A stretch of DNA of 64,000 nt, taken from assembly GCA_902763185.1 (NCBI GenBank), contig CACWQT010000001.1, forward strand, positions 3,406 through 67,405, written 5' to 3'. A model generated the notes under the pieces. That model saw nothing but the letters and a program-made list of their open reading frames with translations, was not told the origin of the DNA and did no database searches. Positions within the stretch are counted from its first letter, which is position 1. Every line of letters starts with the position of its first letter. This document shows, piece after piece, positions 49,380 to 50,588 of the stretch. A program made the position numbers and the translations under genes. Source of the stretch: an uncultured Rhodospirillales bacterium. Lineage in GTDB: Bacteria > Pseudomonadota > Alphaproteobacteria > RF32 > CAG-239.

Positions 49380-50588
49380 TCAGACTTTTAATTTTTTTAC
49401 AAAGGCACCGATTTTTTGATTTGCTTTTACACCATCTTCCGGTGTTACTTTAATTAAACCAAAAAACTTAGGCTTAATTTTTTCCATTTGAATTGGTGAG
49501 AACATTGCCGGATTTTTTACTAGTGCTTCAAAAGAGCCATCCGCATCCTTTTGCGCTGCTCGAAAATAATTATTTATCAGGCGATCCACATCTATTGGAA
49601 AATTTTTCTCTTTTAATTTGGCAATAAATAATTTCTTACGTTCTTGTAATTCCATATACTCTTCATAAAGTTCTCTCTTTATTCTGTTTTTTATCATAAG
49701 CTCTTTCTTTTGTTCATAGCTTACTTCACAAATTTCTATGTCTATCAGTATCTCCACATATGAAATAATCGCTAACTGCAAATCTGTATCATTTAGGGTT
49801 TCAGCGAATGACAAATAGCCTTCATCATCAGCATCAGGTGCCAATCTTTTCATATCTTCCGGTGCATATTTATTGATTATATCCCAACAAGCAAGTAAAT
49901 ATTCGGCAATTTTTTTGCCAATACTCGGCTTATAATTAGGAATTAACATATCCGGCACATAGTCCGTTTGTGGTAGCTTTAGATTTTTTTTCATAGATAT
50001 TACTGTCATACTATCTTGAAAATTCTTAATTTTTTGCGCCAATTCATACTCTTCTTCTTTTAGTCCGCGCTCTTCTGCCGCTGGCTCTGCTTCCGGCGTG
50101 ACAAGACCATCTAATCCTCCATTTATTCCAGCTTGAGAATCATCCTCGGGGGTTACCAACTCATCCAGACTTCCTGATGTGCTTGGCGTAGGGGCTGATA
50201 CTAAATCGTCTAATCCACCTGCTGACTGTTCTGTTGTTTCTTGGGTTACAAATCCGTCTAATCCACCGGTAGGTTCTGTTGTAGAAGAAGAAACATAATT
50301 ATCAAGCCCTCCTGTTGATGTCGAAGATGTTTCTGTTACAAAACCATCTAACCCCTCTGTCGAAGCCGGCTGATTTTGCGATGTCATTAAATTATCAAGC
50401 GAGCTATCTGTTAAAGAAGAAGTTTCTGTTGGCTTTGGACTGCCTTGATTTACAAAATCGTTGAGTAATTTTGCAAATTCATCCTCCAAATTAATACCTA
50501 CGCCAGCATTTTGTTCCTTATTTTCAGTATTTTGGTTATTATCTTCGGGAGTTAGAAAGGAATCTAATCCGCTATTTTCATTTGCCAT
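49380..50588 (-). CDS. Hypothetical protein with eight [GS]LDxhh[TS] motif repeats in an acidic N-terminal half and a helical C-terminal domain
   Basis: The motif copies are GLDSFLT, SLDNLMT, GLDGFVT, GLDNYVS, GLDGFVT, GLDDLVS, SLDELVT and GLDGLVT, all within aa 7-164. The C-terminus is basic (...GAFVKKLKV). First gene of the block. Confidence 0.55.
   Translation of the reverse strand: MANENSGLDSFLTPEDNNQNTENKEQNAGVGINLEDEFAKLLNDFVNQGSPKPTETSSLTDSSLDNLMTSQNQPASTEGLDGFVTETSSTSTGGLDNYVSSSTTEPTGGLDGFVTQETTEQSAGGLDDLVSAPTPSTSGSLDELVTPEDDSQAGINGGLDGLVTPEAEPAAEERGLKEEEYELAQKIKNFQDSMTVISMKKNLKLPQTDYVPDMLIPNYKPSIGKKIAEYLLACWDIINKYAPEDMKRLAPDADDEGYLSFAETLNDTDLQLAIISYVEILIDIEICEVSYEQKKELMIKNRIKRELYEEYMELQERKKLFIAKLKEKNFPIDVDRLINNYFRAAQKDADGSFEALVKNPAMFSPIQMEKIKPKFFGLIKVTPEDGVKANQKIGAFVKKLKV

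Follow-up and report, generated by a model that had tools for sequence, protein, structure and literature searches.

Peptide-mediated recruitment at type IV coupling complexes is already known from a small number of systems. In the type IV secretion system (T4SS) of Legionella, Dot/Icm, the coupling complex comprises DotL together with DotM, DotN, IcmS-IcmW, LvgA, DotY and DotZ; Glu-rich signal peptides are bound by DotM, and IcmSW forms a swinging module (PMC7280309, PMC9300119). In the antibacterial T4SS of Xanthomonas, the XVIPCD is recognised by the all-alpha domain of VirD4 (PMC8740702). The rvh T4SS of the Rickettsiales is a P-type system scattered over the chromosome, with tandem VirB6-like paralogues, a type IV coupling protein (T4CP) as a core component and no conjugation relaxase (PMC2653234). 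Here, we describe a 402-aa protein, A402, encoded by the first gene of a T4CP operon in a 64,000-nucleotide stretch (hereafter, the window) of the genome of an uncultured Rhodospirillales bacterium of the RF32 lineage (assembly GCA_902763185.1, contig CACWQT010000001.1; genome G000). A402 carries eight copies of a seven-residue Leu-Asp (LD) peptide that, judging from sequence comparison, is probably a shared docking tag of T4SS-linked proteins. To what is known of such recruitment, the present analysis adds the origin of the array, its ancestral helix and its sharing with two other protein families. A literature search returned nothing on T4SSs in RF32, nor on short linear motifs (SLiMs) with coupling proteins.

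The locus resembles Dot/Icm in that accessory proteins are encoded with the T4CP or associated with it and the T4CP genes are located away from those of the channel; short acidic peptide signals, flexible modules scanning the cytoplasm and a hexameric ATPase as receptor would be further points of likeness under the mechanism proposed below. It differs in that A402 resembles no Dot/Icm subunit in sequence or fold (Pfam, NCBIfam, PADLOC, PDB profile, Foldseek), in that the T4CP is VirD4/TraG-like rather than DotL-like, and in that the LDxFΦT peptide (Φ, hydrophobic residue) recurs both internally and at the N-terminus of a presumed subunit, whereas Dot/Icm uses a single C-terminal Glu-rich signal on the effector. 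The common ground with Xanthomonas is a lineage-specific recognition element borne by several unrelated proteins, the Xanthomonas reader itself being a VirD4-type T4CP. However, the XVIPCD is a folded ααβββ C-terminal toxin domain of ~120 residues, in contrast to the seven-residue, multi-copy, disordered peptide described here, which is borne by a membrane protein as well as by a subunit encoded in the operon and for which VirD4 is a putative reader. Neither a BID nor an XVIPCD domain was found in A402 using Pfam, NCBIfam and Foldseek comparison with PDB structures, and the likeness to Dot/Icm and XVIPCD recruitment is one of function only.

Outside secretion, the LD motifs of paxillin (LDxLLxxL) are eukaryotic multivalent SLiM arrays that bind helical-bundle domains. 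The A402 peptide shares with them a Leu-Asp pair followed by hydrophobic residues and the presence of several copies in a disordered region, along with a predicted transition to helix on binding and a predicted gain in avidity. It differs in that positions +3 and +4 are hydrophobic but +6 and +7 are occupied by P, S, T, E or Q, without the defining hydrophobic residue at +7; moreover, its setting is the bacterial cytoplasm, and there is no homology between the two.

The LD array of A402, its conservation and its origin

Translation of the A402 gene bore out the earlier note's description of eight [GS]LDxΦΦ[TS] cores between residues 7 and 164, which span exactly nucleotides 50097-50570 of the window (Table 1). 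The spacers of ~10-50 residues reported there require revision: the first gap indeed measures 49 residues, but copies 2-8 are regularly arranged, with spacers of 8-11 residues and intervals of 16, 15, 15, 16, 15 and 18 residues, equivalent to a period of 45-54 nt. Only this first gap is long, and it houses a conserved acidic amphipathic helix (LEDEFAKLLNDFVN). In an AlphaFold2 model built with a 108-sequence alignment, residues 1-31 and 50-171 are disordered (pLDDT ~35), and the motif region, where the earlier note had suggested looking for disorder, falls within these segments. By composition, the N-terminal 171 residues have a net charge of -28 and consist to 54% of S, T, P, G, N and Q.

Across the proteome, surveyed as six-frame open reading frames (ORFs) of at least 100 aa from the 1.58-Mb genome (~533,000 residues outside the A402 motif region), the regular expression of the earlier note, [GS]LD..[LVFYM][TS], matched eight times within 158 residues of A402 versus 15 times everywhere else. 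A position-specific scoring matrix (PSSM) derived from the homologues yielded nine proteome matches at or above 14 bits, six of them in A402, while shuffled proteomes gave 0-2. By either measure, the possibility raised by the earlier note, that unrelated disordered proteins of this proteome carry the motif about as often, is not borne out. For a loosened motif, the chance expectation is ~0.3 per 500 residues, or ~0.015 per 25 residues; the only G000 proteins with multiple copies in a polar context are A402 (eight) and an 865-aa acidic protein (six), to which we return below.

Database searches recovered 454 relatives of A402, all unnamed and originating from gut metagenomes and metagenome-assembled genomes (MAGs) labelled Alphaproteobacteria; an exhaustive hidden Markov model (HMM) search of 1.84 billion representatives retrieved only 128. 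Within the genus, the gene was found in all 24 genomes drawn. The conservation of the motif cores in related genomes, on which the earlier note had made its proposal depend, is evident from 113 non-redundant homologues, which together contain 470 LDxxΦ instances in the N-terminal half and a single one in the C-terminal domain (C-domain). Counted on these matches, where positions -1, +3 and +5 are not forced by the search pattern, the core composition (%) is G59/S21 - L100 - D100 - S43/G20/D12/A11 - F74/L14/M9 - V38/I34/L22 - T57/S27, such that the last position is T or S in 84% of instances. The corresponding family consensus across more than 100 gut-alphaproteobacterial MAG proteins is [GS]-L-D-[SGDA]-F-[VIL]-[TS]. 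The flanks are unconstrained, with no residue exceeding 28% at any position, and the copy number varies from 0 to 8 (mode 3-4) across homologues and from 2 to 8 inside the genus. At the DNA level, a strict G-L-D-x-F-[VIM]-T pattern gave 21 matches in 31 genus genomes, compared with four for a reversed-pattern control; 17 of the 21 lie in known A402 orthologues, one in an orthologue of a 248-aa membrane protein, and one (G044) in what is probably another A402 orthologue. The core thus has the properties of a SLiM: seven residues in a disordered region, a conserved core against free flanks, and recurrence in unrelated T4SS-linked proteins.

The history of the array can be read from its codons. 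Tandem Repeats Finder (TRF) detected no DNA tandem repeat over 50073-50402 of the window, and identical residues of the A402 copies often have different codons; the copies at residues 79 and 109, for instance, are identical at 7/7 residues yet differ in four codons. This synonymous divergence of identical cores, together with the lack of a TRF repeat in the window, indicates that the copies are old here and that their cores were kept by selection. TRF still recognises the array as a repeat of period 45 in two sister species (G012, 4.7 copies with 82% matches; G017, 4.4 copies), with identities of 73-86%; the array therefore grows as 15-codon units are duplicated, and does so separately in different species. 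The earlier note had argued for selection on a repeated docking peptide rather than recent DNA duplication; this holds insofar as the cores are selected and the copies old in this genome, but the array itself was born of 45-nt tandem duplication.

Nearer outgroups, as well as G025 (an outgroup genome, f2, of the same order and another family), retain both the operon and the C-domain but have, instead of the array, one acidic helix, such as DDFEFDRLLDDFMN or DEFDRLLDDFIS. This helix follows the pattern DDFExLLDDFI and is the sole such element in the outgroup homologues. The second half of the A402 helix, LLNDFVN (L-L-[DN]-x-F-[IV]-[NST]), matches the repeated core pattern, and the hydrophobic register of the cores is the same as that of the ancestral helix. 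Because the core pattern corresponds to the second half of the outgroup helix, we interpret the array as an amplification of half an ancestral helix. An argument that this ancestral helix is part of the fold, which FDDFIELAPF of the distant homologue P0170 had seemed to support, was dropped, as visual inspection and the location of the segment with respect to the profile match align it with the C-domain helix at residues 221-241 and not with the N-terminal helix.

The C-domain showed no recognisable fold relative. A402 has no family match in Pfam, NCBIfam or PADLOC; a Foldseek comparison of its AlphaFold2 model with PDB and BFVD gave no match with E <0.25 (best PDB match, E=0.87); and a PDB sequence-profile search returned a single chance match (E=0.36). 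The last ~130 residues of the domain define a broader family whose members, in other lineages, are encoded first in T4CP operons, and these residues are all that A402 has in common with its most distant relatives (FPVDA..LI.NYF...NP..FSPI...FGL.KP...N.K...FLK.LK), many of which open with a basic KKIIKIKRP-like stretch. A further family of ~211-aa proteins (L078:2057-2692) has only the last ~80-130 residues of the C-domain in common with A402, and its gene at this locus is not adjacent to any Pfam-recognisable T4CP; the C-terminal module may therefore have uses outside T4CP operons.

Sharing of the peptide within a scattered T4SS gene set

The same peptide recurs in two further families encoded on another contig of G000 (C4). 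The single-pass membrane protein of 248 aa starts with MMIDDDISLDSLITESE and carries one LD motif, SLDSLIT, at its cytoplasmic N-terminus. Among its orthologues, those of 26 of the 30 genus genomes have xLDx(F/L)Φx at residues ~5-12; a variable segment of ~20 residues comes after it and is itself followed by an invariant basic RPKLRKIKRPKIRP. The basic stretch RPKLKKIKRPKVRP, RPKL[KR]KIKRPK[IV]R, is near-unchanged in most of these 30 genomes and, considered with the KKIIKIKRP-type openings of distant A402 homologues, suggests a second, basic SLiM in the T4SS gene set. The 865-aa acidic protein has six SLDDLM(S/D)xGLDF repeats with a ~40-residue period in G000, and its orthologues carry seven copies of PSLDTFVGE with a period of 34 (G021), three of GGLDSLLGG (G024) or three copies (G005), the period in this family being 33-40 aa. 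The flavour of the motif matches across the three families in G000, where Leu occupies +3 in all, and in G022 (LDNF). In G025, the 248-aa orthologue is encoded beside VirB11 and has no LD motif, and the A402 homologue likewise has none, indicating that the motif arose together in this lineage. The gene arrangements at the distant locus L081, described below, and in G025 assign the three families to one T4SS gene set. Independently of its repeats, the 865-aa protein also contains a run of ten Lys residues (366-375) after Arg365, and the underlying A-rich tract GAAAGAAAAAAGAAAAAGAAAAAAAAGAAAAAAAAG could be slippage-prone.

An orphan T4CP was rejected as an account of the operon, given that C4 harbors VirB4, a TrbI domain, a VirB11-like gene and VirB6-like genes. 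Its machinery locus comprises three small pilin-like genes, a VirB4 homologue (816 aa), the VirB11-like gene, giant secreted proteins of 1989 and 2419 aa, and a 1416-aa protein with a TrbI/VirB10 domain at its end. Elsewhere on the contig, six consecutive genes for polytopic membrane proteins look like an rvh-style amplification of VirB6 paralogues, with the genes for a double helix-turn-helix (HTH) regulator, the 865-aa protein and the 248-aa protein beside them. Support for the VirB6 assignment comes from one sub-threshold TrbL/VirB6 match (E=1.9e-4) and membrane topology in this cluster, and from a full TrbL match at the distant locus L081. There, P0170 heads the T4CP operon, and immediately beside it, in divergent orientation, lie TrbL/VirB6 genes, the double-HTH regulator gene and a gene whose product is homologous to the N-terminal domain of the 865-aa protein. 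No relaxase was found when the whole G000 genome, which is scored as 100% complete, was searched for PF03432, PF08751 and PF03389, so the T4SS is unlikely to be conjugative. A chromosomal P-type system in scattered loci, VirB6-like amplification, a T4CP as a core gene and the absence of a relaxase are all shared with rvh. The differences are that the T4CP here belongs to its own six-gene operon with unassigned partners, and that the VirB6 identity derives from the matches and topology given above. We know of no LD-motif protein described for rvh.

Within the T4CP operon, the order A-B-C-D-T4CP-F (402, 524, 163, 421, 740 and 263 aa) is kept in all 20 genus genomes fetched, and A402 is the first gene also in G025 and at L081. 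The operon is flanked by rluD and, downstream, by a 692-aa ORF, and a 69-nt in-frame gap with stops separates the A402 gene from that of its neighbor B524. Among more distant homologues, P0133, P0153 and P0176 lie on contigs too short for gene context, and the contig of P0193 carries no T4CP. Within-genus identity to G000 is 77-88% for the T4CP, 57-72% for D421, 51-58% for A402 and 23-31% for B524. The last of these varies from 459 to 710 aa in the genus, is conserved only at residues ~99-180 (a hydrophobic FLQACYNEIVVAAYAGAIDLTVDLTLDIFDWILFG segment) and has only seven database homologues; it may be a substrate or may be evolving under diversifying selection. In D421, an acidic/aromatic stretch at residues ~184-198, FNFDDDDFDLDFDFD, follows a basic juxtamembrane region, with DDFDFDFDDGDDDDDFDFDFGDDD at the equivalent place in G025; the T4CP module may thus contain a further acidic peptide element here.

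Table 1. Positions of A402, its motif copies, the T4CP operon and related loci (window coordinates unless a locus or contig is named)
Feature	Coordinates	Strand	Remarks
A402 gene, 402-aa motif-array protein (P0001), first in T4CP operon	49380..50588	(-)	GGAG ~8 nt upstream of start; M1 conserved in 108 homologues
C-terminal domain of A402, all-helical, residues 172-402	49383..50075	(-)	67 invariant alignment columns; AlphaFold2 pLDDT >90 over most
Conserved acidic amphipathic helix of A402, residues 34-47	50448..50489	(-)	Alignment; AlphaFold2 pLDDT ~73
Degenerate tandem array of A402, residues 63-172, seven 15-18-codon units	50073..50402	(-)	Unit = core + Ser/Thr/Pro/Glu spacer; AlphaFold2 disordered
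Motif copy 1 GLDSFLT, residues 7-13	50550..50570	(-)	Near-invariant in family (L8, D9, F11)
Motif copy 2 SLDNLMT, residues 63-69	50382..50402	(-)	Translation + regular expression
Motif copy 3 GLDGFVT, residues 79-85	50334..50354	(-)	Translation + regular expression
Motif copy 4 GLDNYVS, residues 94-100	50289..50309	(-)	Translation + regular expression
Motif copy 5 GLDGFVT, residues 109-115	50244..50264	(-)	Translation + regular expression
Motif copy 6 GLDDLVS, residues 125-131	50196..50216	(-)	Translation + regular expression
Motif copy 7 SLDELVT, residues 140-146	50151..50171	(-)	Translation + regular expression
Motif copy 8 GLDGLVT, residues 158-164	50097..50117	(-)	Translation + regular expression
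Operon gene 2 (B524), 524 aa	47736..49310	(-)	Fast-evolving
Operon gene 3, small membrane protein, 163 aa	47248..47739	(-)	
Operon gene 4 (D421), 421 aa	45926..47191	(-)	Membrane anchor, basic stretch, acidic FNFDDDDFDLDFDFD stretch, C-terminal domain
VirD4/TraG-type T4CP, 740 aa	43684..45906	(-)	Only T4CP in genome
Operon gene 6, polytopic membrane protein, 263 aa	42933..43724	(-)	
248-aa single-pass membrane protein	L012:2480-3226 = C4:118479-119225	minus	
865-aa acidic protein	L012:5068-7665 = C4:121067-123664	minus	
Six consecutive polytopic membrane proteins (1055, 324, 181, 438, 459, 427 aa)	L012:8896-17563 = C4:124895-133562	minus	
T4SS machinery locus	G000 contig C4 ~50,000-92,000		Outside window

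A proposed docking motif of the coupling complex and its competing explanations

We favor, with moderate confidence, the explanation that the array is a lineage-specific multivalent docking motif of the coupling complex of a Rickettsiales-like T4SS, with A402 as a subunit or adaptor. A402 would then be soluble and cytoplasmic, part of the T4CP module of a T4SS that is chromosomal, non-conjugative and similar to the vir system of the Rickettsiales. Its C-domain, as the ancient part, would presumably anchor it to the T4CP complex, while the N-terminal half would form a disordered acidic tether bearing one N-terminal copy, the ancestral helix and the seven-unit array. The placement of Leu(i), Φ(i+3) and Φ(i+4) on one helix face, with a Gly/Ser cap, suggests a fold-upon-binding motif, wherein each core would fold on binding into a 1.5-turn amphipathic helix and enter a hydrophobic groove, its invariant Asp pairing with a nearby basic residue. 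As the peptide is common to a T4CP-operon subunit, a membrane protein and an acidic protein, the simplest model posits one cytoplasmic receptor. The likeliest receptor would be a hexameric ATPase, with the T4CP ranking ahead of VirB4 or VirB11, and the carriage of the array on a ~110-residue flexible acidic tether would give avidity or capture several receptor subunits. Of the partners considered in the earlier note (the T4CP, a chaperone or a host protein), a host protein is the least likely, because an integral membrane protein also bears the peptide, at its cytoplasmic N-terminus.

Several observations weigh against this explanation. The AlphaFold2 model of A402 docks no motif copy in cis, and the 36 T4CP residues that are fixed in the motif-bearing genus and different in two outgroups are scattered, with no obvious new basic patch. 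The C-domain is without a recognisable fold relative, which makes its anchoring role conjecture. Furthermore, single loose-motif matches in some 865-aa orthologues are within chance, and the within-genome match in motif flavour is inconsistent outside G000 and G022.

The same absence of docking in cis bears on an alternative that we consider unlikely, namely a sticker-and-spacer scaffold in which the LD motifs bind the C-domain of A402 and/or basic KKIKRPK(I/V)RP motifs, assembling into a higher-order structure or a condensate-like hub on the cytoplasmic side of the T4SS. Such a scaffold would be in keeping with the multivalent layout and flexible spacers of A402 and with the co-occurrence of acidic LD and basic motifs in unrelated families: the LD motif precedes RPKLRKIKRPKIRP in the 248-aa family, distant A homologues open with KKIIKIKRP or KKVLVKRVKVLVKRPV, the G025 A homologue opens with KKLKKIKKKKIKRK, the 865-aa protein combines its Lys run with acidic repeats, and D421 has basic and then DFDLDFDFD stretches. 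Nevertheless, AlphaFold2 placed no copy on the C-domain, and the sharpness of the core, with its invariant L and D and preferred F, favors a stereospecific pocket over generic charge pairing. A broader conception, to which we likewise assign a low probability, is a private, eukaryote-style SLiM wiring code evolved by gut Alphaproteobacteria of this genus, in which a helix motif of acidic character, LDxFΦ[TS], possibly paired with a basic KKIKRPKΦRP partner, has been amplified in 45-nt units by tandem duplication and distributed over at least three unrelated T4SS proteins, building a multivalent, possibly condensate-like platform around the coupling ATPase.

That A402 might itself be a translocated substrate of the T4SS, its motifs binding a target in a eukaryotic host or a rival bacterium, appears quite unlikely, even though it is acidic, disordered, repeat-bearing, free of a signal peptide and encoded beside the T4CP. 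Its conserved, positively charged C-terminus (...KIGAFVKKLKV) and the resemblance of the motif to the first half of the eukaryotic LDxLLxxL would suit a substrate, as would the lack of a relaxase, by which the T4SS probably moves proteins. However, the basic C-terminus belongs to a family-wide conserved fold, and the motif also occurs at the cytoplasmic N-terminus of a membrane-anchored protein for which export is improbable. Effectors tend to vary and to be scattered, whereas the A402 C-domain retains 67 invariant columns and the A402 gene keeps its place as the first of the T4CP operon throughout an order and beyond; the truly fast-evolving gene is the neighboring B524. Very unlikely, in our assessment, is that the cores are modification or processing sites, for example for phosphorylation or glycosylation at the final T/S, or neutral repeats of an acidic entropic spacer. 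The prevalence of T/S at the last core position, the Ser/Thr-rich spacers and the freely varying copy number are compatible with this, but the invariant Leu and Asp and the conserved Phe and Val/Ile typify a hydrophobic docking face and not a kinase or glycosyltransferase sequon. Moreover, the cores outlast synonymous divergence while the spacers change, and neutral drift leaves the recurrence of the motif in two more T4SS-linked families unexplained.

Significance for type IV coupling and for motif evolution

Substrate recognition by type IV coupling proteins, and their connection to the channel, are poorly understood beyond Legionella Dot/Icm and a few VirD4 systems. A conserved multivalent peptide common to three T4SS-linked proteins could serve directly as bait with which to capture the receptor, in a gut lineage that is widespread though uncultured. 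The array also traces a stepwise birth of a bacterial SLiM array, from a single helix through 45-nt tandem duplications to a diverged array, a process of which documented prokaryotic examples are rare.

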